This document shows, piece after piece, positions 29,093 to 64,000 of a DNA stretch of 64,000 nt (position 1 is the first letter of the stretch; each line of letters opens with the position of its first letter). The stretch comes from Candidatus Berkelbacteria bacterium Licking1014_7 (GTDB lineage Bacteria; Patescibacteriota; UBA1384; GWA2-35-9; CG2-30-39-44). The DNA is taken from positions 2,085-66,084 of the forward strand of contig VMGK01000005.1 in NCBI GenBank assembly GCA_007376535.1, in the 5' to 3' direction. The position numbers were made by a program, and so were the translations under genes. The notes beneath the pieces were generated by a model. The model had not been told where the DNA came from, searched no databases, and was given only the letters and a program-made list of their open reading frames with translations.

Positions 29093-29290
29093 GAACCCAT
29101 TTCAAAAATCCATATATTGCACATCCATCGTCTGGCTGAATGGGCAGCTGCAACAGCAGATATTCTGGCTGCAAAGATTAGAATAATTCGTCAACAGAGC
29201 TTCTGGCTATGCTTCCTCATTATTCTAACTTTTCGCTCATAATCTCTACTGTTTCGCTCCTCAATCAACCAGACGATGGATGTGGGTTCT
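29093..29290 (+). mobile_element. Complete MITE copy (about 198 bp)
   Basis: Begins GAACCCATTTCAAA and ends GGATGTGGGTTC. Confidence 0.55.
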
Positions 29291-29424
29291 TTTATCTGCT
29301 ATTTTGGCTGCAAACAATTCAGAGCTCGTCAGTGTCCGCCAAGGCGGATGCCTTCTCGCTCTTCATTGTTTTCGCTCAAAATATCAAATAAAATTATCAA
29401 AAGAGAGTTTTATAATGGGTTCCT
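29291..29424 (+). mobile_element. Second, 5'-truncated MITE copy in tandem. Its 3' terminal repeat TTTTATAATGGGTTC contains the ATG of the downstream gene
   Basis: TTTTGGCTGCAAA ... TCCGCCAAGGCGGATGC ... TTTCGCTCAAA ... ATAATGGGTTC. Confidence 0.55.
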
Positions 29425-31862
29425 ACAATTCGTTTGAGAATTTTATTCATAAAATAAAAAGGCGAACTTATTTATCGTTATTTTTGTCGGTTTTGGTGGT
29501 GGTTGGTTTTGGCGCGGGATTGATTTTTTGGTCTAAAAATGTTTCACGCGGGGCGACTACTTTAAGTGGAACTATCAATGGCTTACGGACAATTAGCGGA
29601 GACGCGGTGATCAAGACCAACCAAACAGTCACTCACGATCAGGGAAATACTACCGGAGGAACAGGATTGGGAGTGAATGTGAGTGGCACTTTAACCTTGG
29701 AAGCCGGCGCCAAAATTGATGTGAGCGGGAAGGGATATAAGGGGGGATATATTTTTTTTAGCATGAATAATATAGGTGGTTATTATTATACAGCTTTATT
29801 TCCGGCTAAGGGAAGCAAGGATGGCAACGCTCCTCAACAGCAAAATCAAGCTGGTGCCGGCGGAGACTGGGAAAATGGCGGGGCAGGCGGCGGCACAGGA
29901 TATAGAACGGCAAATAGACTGGGCGTTGGCGGCGGCGGCGGCGGCGCGTTTGGCTATGGCTCAGGCGGAAAAACCAACCATTCTTCGGCAAGCCCTGGAT
30001 GTTATGGCGGCGGCGGCGCGGGCTGGAAAGGCAAGGGCGGGGCAGGCGTTTGTTCTGGATCGGCGGTTAACGGTGCAGTAAGCGCCAGCATAAATTTTTC
30101 TAATGACAGTTGGTATAATAACGAGATTCTTTTTGGCGCTGGCGGCGCCAGCGGATTTACCATTACGCAGGATAACTCGGAGGGTGATGGCGGCAACAGT
30201 GAATGCGTCAAAGGCGGCAATGGCGGAGGGGCGGTAAAAATAAAAGCCAAAAAATTAAAAATTGAATCCGGGGCAAGCATATCGGCGGCAGGAAAATCGG
30301 GCGGAAAAATGTGCGATCTGGCTTATAGAGTAAAGTGGTTAACTTTTGGACAATTTACTTTGGGAGCGGCTGGGGGAGGCGGAACAATTTATATTGAGGT
30401 TGACGAATTGGAATTGCCTAGCGGTAATGATTATAATTTTGATGTTTCAGGCGGCGATGGTTGGGGGGCGCTGAGCGGGTCGATGTGGGCATCTTCCGGA
30501 GCAGGAGGCGGAGGGATAGTTGTAATTAGAATCGCAGGGGGAGGAAAAATAAAAATCGGGAATAATTATGTAGATAACTTTGCGACGGTTTACGCCAGAG
30601 CAGATTCCAACAAAGGCATGCTTCGCAATATCATAAACGATGTTTATATTTTAACCCAGAAAATACCTGATAGTGCTTGGGGGGGAGACGGCAAAGAAAT
30701 TTTTGCCGGCAATCCGACCATTCCCGGTGGTTCCACCACCTGCGACACATCAAAAATTAAATTGACTGATCCGTCGTTTTCCAGCCAACCGGCGGCGAAT
30801 TCTCATTACCAGCGCGGTGATACTTTTTCCTATAAGGCGCAATATATTAGTCAAGACAGCGGTTCAAATTGTTCTGGCAAGTATCAATTATATTTCCAGA
30901 CCGCTTTATCAAATGATTTAGAATTTATTGGTGGCAGTAAATTGACTCCCGGAAATTTAGATCCAACAATAGGTGGCGGTTTATTTTCAACTCAACATTG
31001 GGAAGTAAATTCAGCCGGTTCTTACACTGGTGATATTAAGATAAAAATAAAAGATAATGCTTGCAATCAGGCAGGCGGCGGCGTTGAGAACAAAATTCAA
31101 ATTTATCAAAAATACGATAATGGTGTGCTGATGGCGCCATCATCAGGAAATCCAGTTTACTCTAATGCGAATATAATTGTTGATTGTCCGGGCGTGGCGA
31201 TTTCCGGCAATGTTGGCGCAAGCAGTATAACTACGCCCGATCTAAAAATTATCGGTAATTCAGTGGTGGCGATTACGGGTTCCTCGTCAGCCACGCTTGA
31301 TTCACAAGTAGTAAATTTATCTGGTTATACCCATTCAATCAATTTTTCCGACATAAATACAAATTTTGAAGCGCTAAAAACCCGGCGGGCAATTAAGCCG
31401 AATCCTTGGACAAATAATTTTAATTTGAATAAGTACAATAAACCCGAAGGTGGAGTGTGGAAAGAACATCCTACCCCTATGAATAGAACTTTTCTGCAAG
31501 GGTCGCGAGGCACGATATTTCATACTGGCGATTTGACAATAGATGGAATTTCTTGGCAAGGCGCGACGGCTGGTGTTTTGGGCATCGTGGTGAAAGATGG
31601 TAATGTGATGATCAAAGATTTAAATTTAAAAAATGTGGCGATTTACGCGTACGACACCGGTGGCGCGGAAGACGGAAAAATCACTTTTGGCACGGGCGCA
31701 ACGGACGAAACATTAGACATGACCGGTTCGTTTGTCGCTAAAAGCATTGAAATTAAAAGTAAGAAGGGTAATATTAAACATTCGGACGGATTAGATAAAA
31801 ATCCTCCGCCCGGATTTTCTAACTTGCAGTCGCAAATAAAAATTTTAGAAAAAGCGCGGTAG
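29415..31862 (+). CDS. Large glycine-rich secreted/surface protein (N-terminal signal anchor, predicted β-helix/adhesin-like)
   Basis: TM segment LSLFLSVLVVVGFGAGLIFW followed by long GGxGGxG tracts and NxxG repeats. Confidence 0.55.
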   Translation: MGSYNSFENFIHKIKRRTYLSLFLSVLVVVGFGAGLIFWSKNVSRGATTLSGTINGLRTISGDAVIKTNQTVTHDQGNTTGGTGLGVNVSGTLTLEAGAKIDVSGKGYKGGYIFFSMNNIGGYYYTALFPAKGSKDGNAPQQQNQAGAGGDWENGGAGGGTGYRTANRLGVGGGGGGAFGYGSGGKTNHSSASPGCYGGGGAGWKGKGGAGVCSGSAVNGAVSASINFSNDSWYNNEILFGAGGASGFTITQDNSEGDGGNSECVKGGNGGGAVKIKAKKLKIESGASISAAGKSGGKMCDLAYRVKWLTFGQFTLGAAGGGGTIYIEVDELELPSGNDYNFDVSGGDGWGALSGSMWASSGAGGGGIVVIRIAGGGKIKIGNNYVDNFATVYARADSNKGMLRNIINDVYILTQKIPDSAWGGDGKEIFAGNPTIPGGSTTCDTSKIKLTDPSFSSQPAANSHYQRGDTFSYKAQYISQDSGSNCSGKYQLYFQTALSNDLEFIGGSKLTPGNLDPTIGGGLFSTQHWEVNSAGSYTGDIKIKIKDNACNQAGGGVENKIQIYQKYDNGVLMAPSSGNPVYSNANIIVDCPGVAISGNVGASSITTPDLKIIGNSVVAITGSSSATLDSQVVNLSGYTHSINFSDINTNFEALKTRRAIKPNPWTNNFNLNKYNKPEGGVWKEHPTPMNRTFLQGSRGTIFHTGDLTIDGISWQGATAGVLGIVVKDGNVMIKDLNLKNVAIYAYDTGGAEDGKITFGTGATDETLDMTGSFVAKSIEIKSKKGNIKHSDGLDKNPPPGFSNLQSQIKILEKAR

Positions 31863-45149: not shown

Positions 45150-45300
45150 TTTTTCGTAGCGAAACGCAGTAATTTTGAGCGAAAATTGTGAAGAACGAGG
45201 AAAGGTATATGGAATATCCATTGACGAGTTATGAACAATTTGCAGCCAAAATTACAAGTTGTAGTAGAAAAGGTTATTGTGGAAGAAGTCTAACAAAAAA
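45150..45300 (-). mobile_element. Degenerate inverted MITE copy downstream of the pilus operon
   Basis: TTTGCAGCCAAAATTACAAGTTGTAGTAG and GCGAAAATTGTGAAGAACGAGGAAAG match the MITE core in reverse. Confidence 0.4.
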
Positions 45301-45469
45301 TAATCCGTAGACAGCAAGCGAGGTTCAGATTTCTGATTTTGGAAGAAGTCTAGTAAGTCTTGCCGAGGAAATATTGTTAAATTGTTTTTAACCTTGAATT
45401 TCGTAATTCAAGGTATTTAATCAATATTTACCAACTGCGGAAACCGCAGTTTTTTAAAACGGGAACAAT

Positions 45470-60464: not shown

Positions 60465-61151
60465 TTAAAATTTTAAAGATGCGAGATAGTGCAAAATTTT
60501 CCTTAAATCGTCAGAGAGCGGATCTTTGATACTGATGGTTTGTTCTATGGCGAGATGAGTAAAGCCCAAATAAACTGAATGTAAAAATTGTCGGTGTAAT
60601 CCAATTTGACGGCTAATTTTTTTAGATAATTTTGTGTTGTAGACCGGGTCGCCTAAAATCGGAAAGCCAATATTTGATAAGTGAATTCTGATTTGATGGG
60701 TTCGGCCGGTGGCGATTTTTACTTCAAGCAGAGATAGCGGATTTTTTTGAAAATTGTAAGAGCGAATTTTTTTGTACTCGCTTTTTGACCAGCGCCACTT
60801 CCCCCTATTTTGTCCCACTGGAATGTTGGAAAAAATAAACGGTTTTTTGCGCTGCGGATCGCGCGCTAAATATCCTTCAATGATGCCCTTTTCCGGGGTG
60901 TTGCCAATCACTAATGCTTGGTATTTTTTGATAATTTTTCTGGTTTTGAATTGGGCTTGAAGCGCTTTGAGAACTTTTTCGTTTTTTGCCAAAAGTAAAA
61001 TTCCAGAAGTGTTTTTATCCAAGCGATGGGCGGGAAATATTTGATTGGCGATTTTTTGCTTTTTGAGATCATTCGCGATATCACAAGTTTCAATTCCGGC
61101 TGGTTTGGATAGAGCGAGTATATCTTGATCTTGATAAATAATTTTAATCAT
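60465..61151 (-). CDS. RluA-family pseudouridine synthase
   Basis: HRLDKNTSGILLLAKN catalytic-Asp motif. Confidence 0.85.
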   Translation of the reverse strand: MIKIIYQDQDILALSKPAGIETCDIANDLKKQKIANQIFPAHRLDKNTSGILLLAKNEKVLKALQAQFKTRKIIKKYQALVIGNTPEKGIIEGYLARDPQRKKPFIFSNIPVGQNRGKWRWSKSEYKKIRSYNFQKNPLSLLEVKIATGRTHQIRIHLSNIGFPILGDPVYNTKLSKKISRQIGLHRQFLHSVYLGFTHLAIEQTISIKDPLSDDLRKILHYLASLKF

Positions 61152-61164
61152 AAGTATATTTTAT

Positions 61165-61640
61165 CCCCACACCTTTCCAGAATACCTCTCAGTTTGCTGC
61201 GAGGATGAATGGACATTATAAATTCTTTCGGCGGGGTTTAATACCTCGCCGAAAGGTGTGGGGATTTATCGCTAGACCGGCTGCGGCCTAATGGTGAGAT
61301 AAAGAAAAAGGCGCCCATCGCGCTGACTTTCCAGCGGGCCGGGTATGCTGGTTGGTCGGGGGTGCGCGAGGGGCGCCACGGGCACTACTTTTTCTGCTTT
61401 CGGAACGGAATCCGAACACAGCAGAGTGGGTTAAAGTAGCGCCCGGAGATGGGTGGAGCGTCTGGGGTTGTGCCCTAAGGGGCAGCACACACGGAAAGGA
61501 GAGGGTCCCGAGAGGGTCCCCCCAGACGCTCCGAAAATGAAAGAAGGGAAGGGGGCGGGCTGCAGTCGGAAGAGGAGTCCCTGCAACCCACCCAGAAGAC
61601 GGGAGGGTAGTGGGGAAAGGAGAACCCGCGCCCATCCGTC
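61165..61640. ncRNA. GC-rich (roughly 60-65% by eye) island with no credible ORF. Candidate structured RNA of unknown class
   Basis: Sharp local GC rise against an AT-rich background. Tandem GAGAGGGTCCC, a GCGCCCATC direct repeat, and a long-range hairpin CCCCACACCTTTC ... GAAAGGTGTGGGG at 61167-61265. Strand not determined. Confidence 0.4.
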
Positions 61641-61719
61641 CTTTCGTAAAGACAATCTAATCTTATCATACAATTGCTTTGCTTGTCAAGTTCCGAAAGG
61701 TCGCCAGACCGTGGACAAA

Positions 61720-62847
61720 TTAAATCAATTTGTCTTTGTCGTTTTTGGACTCTTCTAACATTTCCAATCCTTTGATTTGCGGGAAATTCGGTCCAGCAAT
61801 GCCGGTAATGCCACCATAGATATTAAACAATGATTTGAACATTTTATTGAGCTGAACTTCTCTTCGCTTCCATTGTGTTTCAAAAGCCACTTTTTCTTTG
61901 ATGATTTGCTCTTGCATTCCAAAATACGATTCTGCGATCGCTTCCATTTGCTGAGTGAACTCGTGGCTGTTCAGATATTCATATAATTCTTCGGCAGTGC
62001 TGGCACTTTGAGCTGAAATTGCCTTTTGTTTGGCGCCTTCCAGCAAGATATTACGCAAAAATGTTGCTAAGGCAATAAAATATTTTGGCGTGGTCACCCA
62101 AACTTTGTTAATAGGGATAATTTCCTTTGGAGCGTCTTTGGGTAAAACCATACTGACTAGCCCTGCGAACCTTGCTTTTTCCACGCGCTGATCGGAGCGT
62201 AATTTGTCAATCCATTTATTTTCCCAGTTTTTAGTCCGTTTGTTTTCCCATATAATTTTTCCAGCTATATTGCCCATTGGGGTTTTAACCAATTGAACCA
62301 AATCCGCGCCCCGTACGCCCTTTTTTACTTCTAAAATTTCGTCTTGGGGGAAAACGTTTCTCAGTGAATTTTCCAAATCCAATTCCAAAATTTCGCCTTG
62401 GGCTTGCTCAGAACCTTGTTCTGCTTTCCGTTTAAGTTCTTCGGCTACTTTTTTAAGATCAGCAATTTGTTTGTCTTTTTCTAAATTTTTTAGTCGATTT
62501 TCTTCGTTAATTTTTTGCGCTAAATTTTCTTTGGCTTTTTCTATTTCGTCAAAAATTTGTTTTTGACTTTTCAGTTCTCTTTCTTCGTCTTTTTCTCGTA
62601 GTAAGCGCAAACTTTTATTCAATTCTAAAAGTTGATTGCCAAGTTCACGGTTTCGCTTTTTTAATTCTTCTGCCTCATTTTCTTTATCTTTAATTTTCAA
62701 TTCCTGTTCCGCTAAAATTTTCTCGCGCAATTTTTGTTCAAAATTTTTTTCGATTTCCTGTTTTTGCTCCTCGCGAATTTGATCCGTAAGCGCTTCGCTC
62801 AGTTCAATTTCTTTTTGGCAATAGGGGCATTTGATAGTATTTATCAT
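61720..62847 (-). CDS. DUF2130-like coiled-coil protein with N-terminal CxxC zinc ribbon
   Basis: CPYC, a long EQK-rich coiled coil, and a conserved C-terminal globular domain. Confidence 0.5.
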   Translation of the reverse strand: MINTIKCPYCQKEIELSEALTDQIREEQKQEIEKNFEQKLREKILAEQELKIKDKENEAEELKKRNRELGNQLLELNKSLRLLREKDEERELKSQKQIFDEIEKAKENLAQKINEENRLKNLEKDKQIADLKKVAEELKRKAEQGSEQAQGEILELDLENSLRNVFPQDEILEVKKGVRGADLVQLVKTPMGNIAGKIIWENKRTKNWENKWIDKLRSDQRVEKARFAGLVSMVLPKDAPKEIIPINKVWVTTPKYFIALATFLRNILLEGAKQKAISAQSASTAEELYEYLNSHEFTQQMEAIAESYFGMQEQIIKEKVAFETQWKRREVQLNKMFKSLFNIYGGITGIAGPNFPQIKGLEMLEESKNDKDKLI

Positions 62848-63049: not shown

Positions 63050-64000
63050 TTAGTTCTCAAAAAATGCGCACCACTGACAAGGTTTGCCCGGGGTTTCGCG
63101 ATGATCAAATTTTAGCGCTTGGATATTTTGCCAGACATCAATAATTTGTTTTTTGAAATCCTTCATTTCATTTTTGTCAAACGAAAAAATATGTTTGGCA
63201 AAACGATAATTTTCGTCCAAAAATTCAATTGCGGTCTCCCCTATTTTCCATTTGGTAAAAAAACGGTGATCCAATTCTCCCAAAAGCCAATAAAATTGCA
63301 GTTGCAATAAATAGTTGCGATCGCGTTTTTTTGTCAACCCCATTATTTCATTCCTGCTTTTGGCTTGCCCGGTTTTATAGTCAATCACCCGGACTAAATT
63401 TTTTCTTTTATCCAACCATTCAATTTTGTCAATTTTGCCAGTTAACGGTATACTGCCAAAGCGCACATTGTGAGGTCTGAAATTAAATTCAGTCCAAAGC
63501 GGTTTTTGAAAATTGTTTTTATTCCAAGACGGCGAATACCTCGGAGCTTGCTCCGAGTCCCGCCCCTTGGCGGGATCAAATGGCGGAACAAACGAATACC
63601 CCGCAGCTTGCTGCGTGGGTCGTTTATATTTTTCAAAATAATTGCTTAGCAATTTTTTACCCGCTTGTAAAAATTCAATCTTCTCTTTTTTTGATAAAAT
63701 TTCTTTTTCAATCGCCCGATCAAAATATTTTATCAAATCGTTTGCTTCGGGCAAGTAATTATTTTTTATATAATCGCGAAAAAATTCTTCTAATGCTTTG
63801 TGTATGGCTGTTCCATAACTTTGCGCCGCTGACTTGATTTGCGGCAGGCGAATAATGTTTTTTAGCAAATAGTCGCGCGGACATTTTAGATAAGTGGTAA
63901 AACCGGTCGGGCTCAGCGGTTGATTTTTGACAATATTTTTTAGCCAAGTTTTTTCCGCGCGCGGAAAATTAATTATCGCGGTGGCGCTTAATTCATCTAC
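63050..64000 (-). CDS. PD-(D/E)xK (RecB/AddB/Cas4-like) nuclease domain protein; the 5' end lies outside the window
   Basis: TYLKCPRDY ... IDYKTGQ ... QLQFY ... CQWC. The frame is open to the window edge. Confidence 0.5.
   Translation of the reverse strand, partial: VDELSATAIINFPRAEKTWLKNIVKNQPLSPTGFTTYLKCPRDYLLKNIIRLPQIKSAAQSYGTAIHKALEEFFRDYIKNNYLPEANDLIKYFDRAIEKEILSKKEKIEFLQAGKKLLSNYFEKYKRPTQQAAGYSFVPPFDPAKGRDSEQAPRYSPSWNKNNFQKPLWTEFNFRPHNVRFGSIPLTGKIDKIEWLDKRKNLVRVIDYKTGQAKSRNEIMGLTKKRDRNYLLQLQFYWLLGELDHRFFTKWKIGETAIEFLDENYRFAKHIFSFDKNEMKDFKKQIIDVWQNIQALKFDHRETPGKPCQWCAFFEN

Follow-up and report, generated by a model that had tools for sequence, protein, structure and literature searches.

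A GC-rich island upstream of an RluA gene in Berkelbacteria is probably an independent structured RNA gene

What does a GC-rich island encode when it lies between two protein genes of an AT-rich genome and holds no credible gene for a protein of its own? The question is raised by a 64,000-nucleotide stretch of contig VMGK01000005.1 from Candidatus Berkelbacteria bacterium Licking1014_7, hereafter the window, in which a 568-nt spacer between a gene for a DUF2130 protein and a gene for an RluA-type pseudouridine synthase is filled by such an island. A sequence-only reading had drawn its bounds at 61165-61640, proposed a structured RNA fitting no known family on inspection, either novel or a divergent housekeeping RNA, and left the strand unsettled. 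Here, we present evidence that the island is an independent structured RNA gene on the minus strand, a reading that we hold with a probability of roughly 0.8. A GC-rich spacer in an AT-rich genome is a recognised mark of genes for structured RNAs, and many classes of them have come to light in this way (PMC6429828). The GC fraction was 0.555-0.615 in 200-nt windows over 61200-61699, against 0.393 for the whole window, in keeping with the earlier description of a GC-rich island in a genome below 40% GC; at 150-nt resolution, the peak spanned 61216-61673 and reached a maximum of 0.65.

The open reading frames (ORFs) of the island are Pro/Arg/Gly-rich, Pfam searches with four of them gave no significant match, and a six-frame segment comparison between lineages showed no reading frame conserved in the island, which bears out the earlier statement that no ORF there is credible. 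In the same comparison, the similarity between two of the homologous loci introduced below, L003 and L028, switched between frames and strands, the behaviour that would be expected of conserved non-coding DNA. The repeats listed by the sequence-only reading were all present: GAGAGGGTCCC occurs as two tandem copies at 61499-61520, inside the hairpin that we call H3, GCGCCCATC occurs at 61311 and at 61628, and the long-range hairpin is a perfect 15-nt inverted repeat. Beyond it, there are four inverted repeats of 13-14 nt with 92-100% complementarity. When the 568-nt spacer was folded and compared with dinucleotide shuffles, the z-score was -9.9 for the plus strand and -8.8 for the minus strand, and none of 100 shuffles folded as well.

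The DUF2130 protein next to the island is 100% identical to a protein of Candidatus Berkelbacteria bacterium Licking1014_7, and the contig is also found in an ENA assembly. Homologous islands were found at three further loci by different routes. Locus L003, from Hainich groundwater, was found by synteny and consists of a DUF2130 gene whose product is 73% identical to that of the window, a 413-nt spacer and an RluA gene. Locus L016, a 97.8%-identical variant of L003, was found with a DNA pattern derived from the H3 stem; it was the only real one of 15 matches, the other 14 being chance matches in GC-rich genomes. These two loci both come from Hainich well H43 and represent one lineage, while L028, found through an RluA homologue with 51% identity, represents another and carries an rve-type transposase fragment, a 340-nt spacer and the RluA gene. 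The RluA orthologues next to the homologous islands are only 51% identical to that of the window. The closest RluA protein (55% identity) belongs to locus L029, where the contig is cut; reading by eye, we found about 90 nt of GC-rich sequence there, ending in a hairpin and a U-run some 110 nt before RluA, and this 3′ fragment was matched neither by a model of hairpins H4 and H5 (R1) nor by a model of hairpin H1 (R2). Synteny look-ups in the more distant relatives L004-L010, L026 and L027 showed no island at the corresponding position, and the DNA retrieved for them held no other non-coding GC peak. A DUF2130-based search of species-representative genomes returned no relatives, and hence the clade of the source genome is not in that collection. 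Searching all loci with the island by blastn gave no match, true homologues included, indicating that a sequence-only search is too insensitive for this RNA family. Phage, plasmid and viral collections gave no match to the island either (blastn for phages and plasmids, pattern scans), the scans of viral contigs with H4/H5 patterns yielding chance matches only; in the absence of a blastn match among phages and plasmids, there is no sign of an origin from either. As judged from these sequences, the RNA gene is confined to a small groundwater subclade of Berkelbacteria and always lies just upstream of an RluA orthologue.

The putative ends of the gene can be read at both sides of the island. All four full loci share the position of a promoter that is read in the direction of the flanking genes; in the window it departs slightly from consensus (Table 1), while the aligned position in L003, L016 and L028 reads TTGACA-18-TATAAT with TG and scores 12/12. 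At the other side, a terminal GC-rich hairpin (H5) is followed by a U-run, which reads UUUUUCUUUAU at 61309-61299 of the window and UUUUGU in L003 and L016, and which in L028 consists of ten U. Our simple terminator scan was limited to loops of at most 8 nt and called none of these hairpins, so the terminator was identified by reading the sequence, and we regard H5 with its U-run as a putative intrinsic terminator. Placing the 5′ end about 7 nt past the -10 box and the 3′ end in the U-run after H5, we obtained predicted RNA lengths of ~355 nt (window), ~310 nt (L003, L016) and ~260 nt (L028). The predicted transcript of the window has 61% GC, with 132 C against 88 G on its sense strand.

We then compared the predicted RNAs hairpin by hairpin. 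Folded as the sense strand, each of the four homologues gives a row of hairpins. For H1, 6 of 24 pairs are compensatory between L003/L016 and L028, and model R2 recovered no H1 counterpart in the window. The G-rich 5′ arm of H2 is kept (UGGGUGGRUUG), while the 3′ arm in L003 has drifted from C to U and gives three G-U pairs, so that pairing works only on the strand equivalent to the minus strand of the window. H3 is common to the window, L003 and L016, its outer stem carrying one C-G to U-A swap in the window relative to the other two; it is missing in L028, where the sequence passes directly from CAGUUUGGAG into H4. Variation in its inner hairpin H3b affects 4 of 6 pairs, with pairing kept throughout. 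Between L003 and L016 there are 9 differences inside the RNA, 6 of which fall in this 6-bp hairpin (U-G to C-G and two C-G to U-A changes among them) with all six pairs preserved. H3b (L003 2374-2385, L016 5207-5219) is thus a locally fast-evolving stem, and its loop changes from GAAA to GAACA.

The covariance model R1 of hairpins H4 and H5 was built only from L003, L016 and L028, and against the 64-kb window it gave a single match, at 61445-61297 on the minus strand, over the full model (24.9 bits, E ~4e-4). The covariation check that the sequence-only reading had proposed was made on the resulting alignment, which comprises the window, L003 and L028: standard pairs take up 95% of cells, and 13 of 35 pairs have changed on both sides. 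None of 500 shuffles reached these values, and sliding the partners by 1-3 columns lowered pairing to 30-50%. A predicted unpaired CACCCC in the internal loop of H5, on the 5′ side of the hairpin, appears to be conserved: it is aligned in the window, L003 and L016, with ACCUC in L028. The loop of H4 is CCCCUU in L003 and L028, and L016 contains this sequence too. Among predicted unpaired positions, G makes up 5-6% in the window, L003 and L016, and pyrimidines make up 78% in the window and ~62% in L003, L016 and L028, although the C excess of the sense strand would by itself bias a count of unpaired C-rich sequence.

The strand on which the RNA is encoded could be addressed with the same data. 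On the opposite strand, the G-U pairs that L003 has in H2 and H3b would turn into A-C mismatches, and the sense strand of L003 and L016 folds better than the antisense strand by 8-11 kcal/mol. Together with the promoter and the terminal hairpin, this points to the minus strand. The features of the locus are collected in Table 1.

Table 1. Positions in the window of the RNA gene, its parts and the elements around it
Feature	Position	Strand	Basis or detail
RNA-gene promoter	61660..61689	-	TTGACA 61689-61684, 18-nt spacer, TG, TAAGAT 61665-61660; scan 10/12 with TG
Predicted transcript, ~355 nt	61299..61653	-	ends set from promoter and terminator; fold z = -8.1
5′ region (small hairpin and weak stem)	61594..61653	-	alignment; first ~30 nt like the 5′ end of L028: UUGU-CUUUACGAAAGG vs UUGUGCCUUACGGAA
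Hairpin H2	61553..61593	-	5′ arm UGGGUGGGUUG conserved (UGGGUGGAUUG in L003, L016)
Hairpin H3	61455..61532	-	13-bp outer stem GGAGCGUCUGGGG with CCCCAGACGCUCC, two small hairpins within
Hairpin H4	61379..61445	-	inverted repeat I6; within R1 match
Hairpin H5 and UUUUUCUUUAU	61299..61377 (H5 61310-61377; U-run 61309-61299)	-	inverted repeat I3; R1 match; covariation
103-nt element, window-specific	61163..61265	-	perfect 15-nt inverted repeat 61163-61177 / 61251-61265 (I1, I5)
RluA start codon and -10-like TAAAAT	ATG 61151-61149; hexamer 61163-61158	-	sequence; L003 2554-2567, L016 5389-5401, L028 597-611
RluA-family pseudouridine synthase gene (downstream neighbour)	60465..61151	-	Pfam PF00849, E = 3e-29
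DUF2130 protein gene (upstream neighbour)	61720..62847	-	Pfam PF09903, E = 7e-56

Based on these observations, we propose that a near-consensus sigma-70 promoter with an extended -10 (61689-61660) would start a transcript at about 61653, which would end at the long GC-rich hairpin with its U-run (61377-61299), fold into about five GC-rich hairpins (H1-H5) and expose pyrimidine-rich, nearly G-free single strands between and inside them (CACCCC; CCCCUU in other lineages). The product is probably a discrete, stable and abundant transcript. Such an RNA would most likely act in trans, with its C-rich segments pairing with G-rich segments of target RNAs or its hairpins serving as a scaffold or decoy for an RNA-binding protein; in its evolution, stems would be kept while their sequence is replaced, and whole hairpins gained or lost. 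The high GC content persists in AT-rich genomes across lineages, with flanking proteins that are 51-73% identical. An independent gene of ~355 nt together with trans action of either kind is an explanation in which we have moderate confidence, while C-rich pairing as the specific mechanism is put forward tentatively. Unpaired UCCC or C-rich boxes that bind Shine-Dalgarno regions have been documented for RsaE and RNAIII (PMC2790875).

Several points weigh against this explanation. We infer both transcript ends from the promoter and the terminator. The sample comprises three independent lineages and four full sequences, two of them near-identical, and the covariation statistics are correspondingly weak; moreover, the H4/H5 alignment (A9) was fitted to the model. 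Judged by sequence, the locus has features generic to independent bacterial small-RNA genes, namely an own promoter conserved in position and compensatory stems without a conserved ORF, the latter from three lineages only. At the sequence level, little is conserved between the window and the other lineages (blastn gave nothing, and H1 was not recovered in the window). The antisense strand of the window folds slightly better than the sense strand (-179 vs -163 kcal/mol), because the sense strand has more C than G. Most genes of the window organism lack recognisable Shine-Dalgarno sequences, which weakens an anti-Shine-Dalgarno mechanism. Finally, the RluA gene of the window has no good -35 box, and read-through from the RNA promoter may therefore feed its expression.

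Among the alternatives, a protein-binding RNA fares best. Here, the hairpin array and its pyrimidine-rich linkers would form a scaffold, decoy or sponge for an RNA-binding protein, for instance one of the KH or S1 type or the neighbouring RluA. The stems are conserved while sequence and hairpin number vary, as expected where shape outweighs sequence; the genes here largely lack Shine-Dalgarno sequences; and adjacency to RluA is kept though the upstream neighbour changes from DUF2130 (window, L003, L016) to a transposase fragment (L028). However, no repeated loop motif of the sponge type was found and no candidate protein partner was identified, and RluA-family enzymes are generally known to work as stand-alone enzymes. 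We consider a protein-binding RNA possible, if clearly not the first choice.

The constant position of the island directly upstream of RluA, in the same orientation, also suggests a cis-acting leader or attenuator, transcribed from the upstream promoter, with the terminator hairpin deciding on read-through into RluA. The poor -35 of RluA in the window would fit such a role, and so would a 9-mer, GAUGGGCGC, that the window has close to the 5′ end and again in the terminator's 3′ arm and that makes anti-terminator pairing conceivable. Against this, the other lineages do not keep the 9-mer repeat, Rfam gave no match to a known riboswitch or leader family, and 260-355 nt is long for an attenuator. 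Moreover, between the terminator and RluA, all four loci and thus three lineages have a -10-like hexamer separated from the ATG by exactly 6 nt: TAAAAT-ATACTT-ATG in the window, TGGTATAAT-ATACTC-ATG in L003 and L016, and TGTTATAAT-TAAATT-ATG in L028. In L003, L016 and L028 the box is a full TGnTATAAT; that of the window, TAAAAT, is weaker and lacks the TG. No Shine-Dalgarno sequence precedes RluA in any of the four loci. This suggests that RluA has its own promoter and a leaderless mRNA, from which it would follow that the island is a separate transcription unit, and it makes a cis-leader role less likely; we regard such a role as rather unlikely, though less so for the window with its poor -35.

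The region first delimited is two separable things, namely the RNA gene proper (about 61299-61653, minus strand) and a window-specific element of 103 nt (61163-61265), and the bounds 61165-61640 had taken in both. The element is located between the RNA terminator and the RluA start, and its ends, ATCCCCACACCTTTC and GAAAGGTGTGGGGAT, are the strands of the long-range hairpin noted earlier; a nested 13-bp hairpin competes for the CUUUC/GAAAG strands. The element is absent from L003, L016 and L028 and has no second copy in the 64-kb window. It could be an insertion resembling a miniature inverted-repeat transposable element (MITE) or a local regulatory hairpin over the RluA promoter. For the island as a whole, we rejected a MITE or other repeat element: no part of it has a second copy in the window or the other loci, and terminal inverted repeats occur only on the 103-nt sub-element.

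These observations bear on whether the island is functional at all. It might instead be the degenerating trace of GC-rich or mobile DNA taken up in the past, or simply several terminator hairpins in a row that insulate the two neighbouring genes from each other. In favour of such a view, its distribution is narrow, with no island at this position in the more distant relatives, its turnover is fast, the window carries the extra element with MITE-like ends, and in L028 a transposase fragment abuts the island. This fragment (L028 2-270) is the C-terminal part of an rve-type (integrase-core) transposase, standing upstream in place of DUF2130, and its TGA stop codon falls inside the -35 box (TTGACA) of the RNA promoter. 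A remnant or insulator would not, however, be expected to keep a 12/12 promoter in position, stems maintained by compensatory changes, or high GC in AT-rich genomes while flanking proteins diverged to 51-73% identity, and neither a second copy in the window nor a phage, plasmid or viral match was found. A non-functional island thus appears unlikely.

A functional RNA on the plus strand, purine-rich with many GGA triplets, such as a sponge of the CsrB/RsmZ kind, is very doubtful. In its favour, G and A are abundant on the plus strand, which in the window also has the slightly better fold and a promoter-like site at 61131-61160, but this site is the reverse complement of the AT-rich -10 region of RluA and scores only 9/12 in L003. 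No terminator-like hairpin with a U-run follows the island on that strand by eye, and the scan called none on either strand; the G-U pairs of L003 and the better sense folds of L003 and L016 argue for the other strand, and the CsrB/Rsm models of Rfam gave no match. A functional coupling to the neighbouring RluA enzyme, with the RNA as a substrate mimic that titrates or regulates it or as a cofactor that directs it, is equally hard to credit: RNA and RluA stay adjacent in every lineage carrying the RNA, also where the transposase fragment has replaced the upstream neighbour, but inspection of the RNA showed no H/ACA-like pocket or box, and we know of no precedent for a bacterial stand-alone pseudouridine synthase with an RNA partner.

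We also searched for known RNA families. With Rfam release 15 at gathering score, the whole window gave only five tRNAs and a ribosomal protein L10 leader, leaving the island unmatched. At E<=10 with permissive filters over 61000-61800, both strands returned only chance-level eukaryotic miRNA, snoRNA and lncRNA models of 10-18 bits, and the homologue loci matched no family at E<=1. ARAGORN found five tRNAs and no transfer-messenger RNA (tmRNA) in the window. The earlier judgement that the RNA fits no known family thus holds, and the both-strand Rfam check proposed with it has been carried out. Housekeeping RNAs were considered one by one. RNase P RNA is recognised by the conserved P4 strands GGAAAGUCC and ACAGAACCCGGCUUA on one strand; its models (RF00010, RF00011) matched neither strand at E<=10 nor at gathering score. 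The P4-like strings that had been pointed out are present, but they are split between the strands, GGAAAGUC being on the minus and AGAACCCG on the plus strand, and GGAAAGUC is aligned with non-matching sequence in L003. The string GGAAAGTC is part of the 3′ arm of H5, the terminator hairpin, on the minus strand; it aligns to CCAAAAUCC in L003 in the R1 alignment, showing that it is not conserved. The signal recognition particle (SRP) RNA has as its hallmark domain IV (helix 8), with a GNRA loop and conserved symmetric and asymmetric loops; RF00169 and RF01854 matched neither the window nor the homologues, and the SRP-like string with its GGAA loop, GCAGTCGGAAGAGGAGTCCCTGC, is on the plus strand, antisense to the tip of H2, whose sequence is unrelated in L003, L016 and L028. 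For tmRNA, with its tRNA-like domain and tag-peptide frame, Rfam was as negative as ARAGORN.

6S RNA is a rod-like fold closed by pairing of its 5′ and 3′ ends, with a large central bubble. RF00013 gave no match, and minimum-free-energy and centroid folds showed independent hairpins in all four homologues. The likeness lies in the gene arrangement: a strongly promoted stand-alone RNA gene immediately precedes a protein gene and is read in the same direction, as ssrS precedes ygfA in E. coli; the difference is a row of separate hairpins in place of the closed rod. Lineages differ by the gain or loss of entire hairpins (H3 is absent from L028, H1 undetected in the window), which is unlike an essential catalytic core. 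Housekeeping RNAs are sometimes missed computationally in small genomes (PMC4779614), yet a highly divergent RNase P, SRP, tmRNA or 6S RNA overlooked by covariance models in a reduced genome of the Candidate Phyla Radiation (CPR) is barely conceivable and already largely refuted, since the P4-like and GGAA-loop strings that suggested it are on different strands and unconserved in the homologues, no model matches, hairpin content varies, and the fold is a string of hairpins, neither a 6S-like rod nor a P4-centred core. What RNase P, SRP and tmRNA do share with the island is a GC-rich structured RNA of a few hundred nucleotides in an AT-rich genome.

The independent small RNA that we favour can be compared with two further groups, of which the C-rich-box small RNAs of low-GC Firmicutes offer the nearest analogy for how it might work. 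RNAIII is 514 nt long and RsaE is shorter than the island RNA, which at 260-355 nt lies between them in size. Like these and the other C-rich-box small RNAs of Firmicutes (RsaE/RoxS, other Rsa RNAs, RNAIII), the island RNA would be a stand-alone gene from promoter to terminator in a low-GC genome, with several stable hairpins and unpaired UCCC/CCCC motifs in loops and linkers (PMC2790875). Unlike them, it occurs in the CPR, its host genome has few Shine-Dalgarno sequences, and the Rfam models of RsaE and RNAIII gave no match. It may at most be analogous to RsaE/RoxS in a possible mode of action and is not a family member. With OLE, raiA, ROOL, GOLLD and HEARO it shares a long GC-rich spacer in an AT-rich genome (PMC6429828), many hairpins, a function not yet assigned and restriction to lineages. 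It differs from them in matching none of their Rfam models, in much lower sequence conservation with hairpins that come and go, in the lack of identified conserved multi-stem junctions or pseudoknots, and in a far narrower distribution, with three lineages found. Taken together, the island RNA is an unclassified, lineage-restricted, structured small RNA, and nothing about it is contrary to known bacterial small-RNA biology.

Other features of the window and of the relatives were recorded alongside. Other GC peaks at 150-nt resolution were inspected if above ~0.59; the strongest were a tRNA cluster at ~23.5 kb and, highest of all, 29784-30117. We rejected the latter as a second RNA candidate, as it is coding sequence for a very Gly-rich repeat region (up to 68% GC) of an 860-aa protein (29280-31862, plus strand). 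The L10 leader (45287-45428, plus strand; RF00557, 46.6 bits against a gathering score of 44) is the sole recognised cis-regulatory RNA in the window. A gene for a UvrD-helicase/PD-(D/E)XK protein contains a 23-nt direct repeat (63533-63555 and 63593-63615, 60 nt apart), each copy holding a 6-bp palindrome, CGGAGC-TT-GCTCCG in one and CGCAGC-TT-GCTGCG in the other, a compensatory difference; the repeat encodes [E/Q]QA[P/A][R/G]YS twice and resembles a small hairpin-forming insertion in coding sequence. In the Hainich relatives, a heliorhodopsin gene (PF18761; L003 170-952, L016 2999-3781) lies directly upstream of DUF2130.

CPR bacteria have tiny genomes and few recognisable regulators, and to our knowledge very few regulatory or structural RNAs beyond the universal ones have been described in them; our literature searches returned no description of non-coding RNAs in Berkelbacteria and nothing relevant for the CPR. 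That GC-rich hairpins are kept against an AT mutational bias in a strongly promoted RNA of 260-355 nt suggests that the RNA probably has a useful role. It would also be an example of an RNA gene that swaps whole hairpins while promoter, terminator and stem pairing stay. The family is narrow and its present importance moderate; in a poorly explored phylum, it gives metatranscriptome mining something definite to look for and offers a starting point for a new RNA family.

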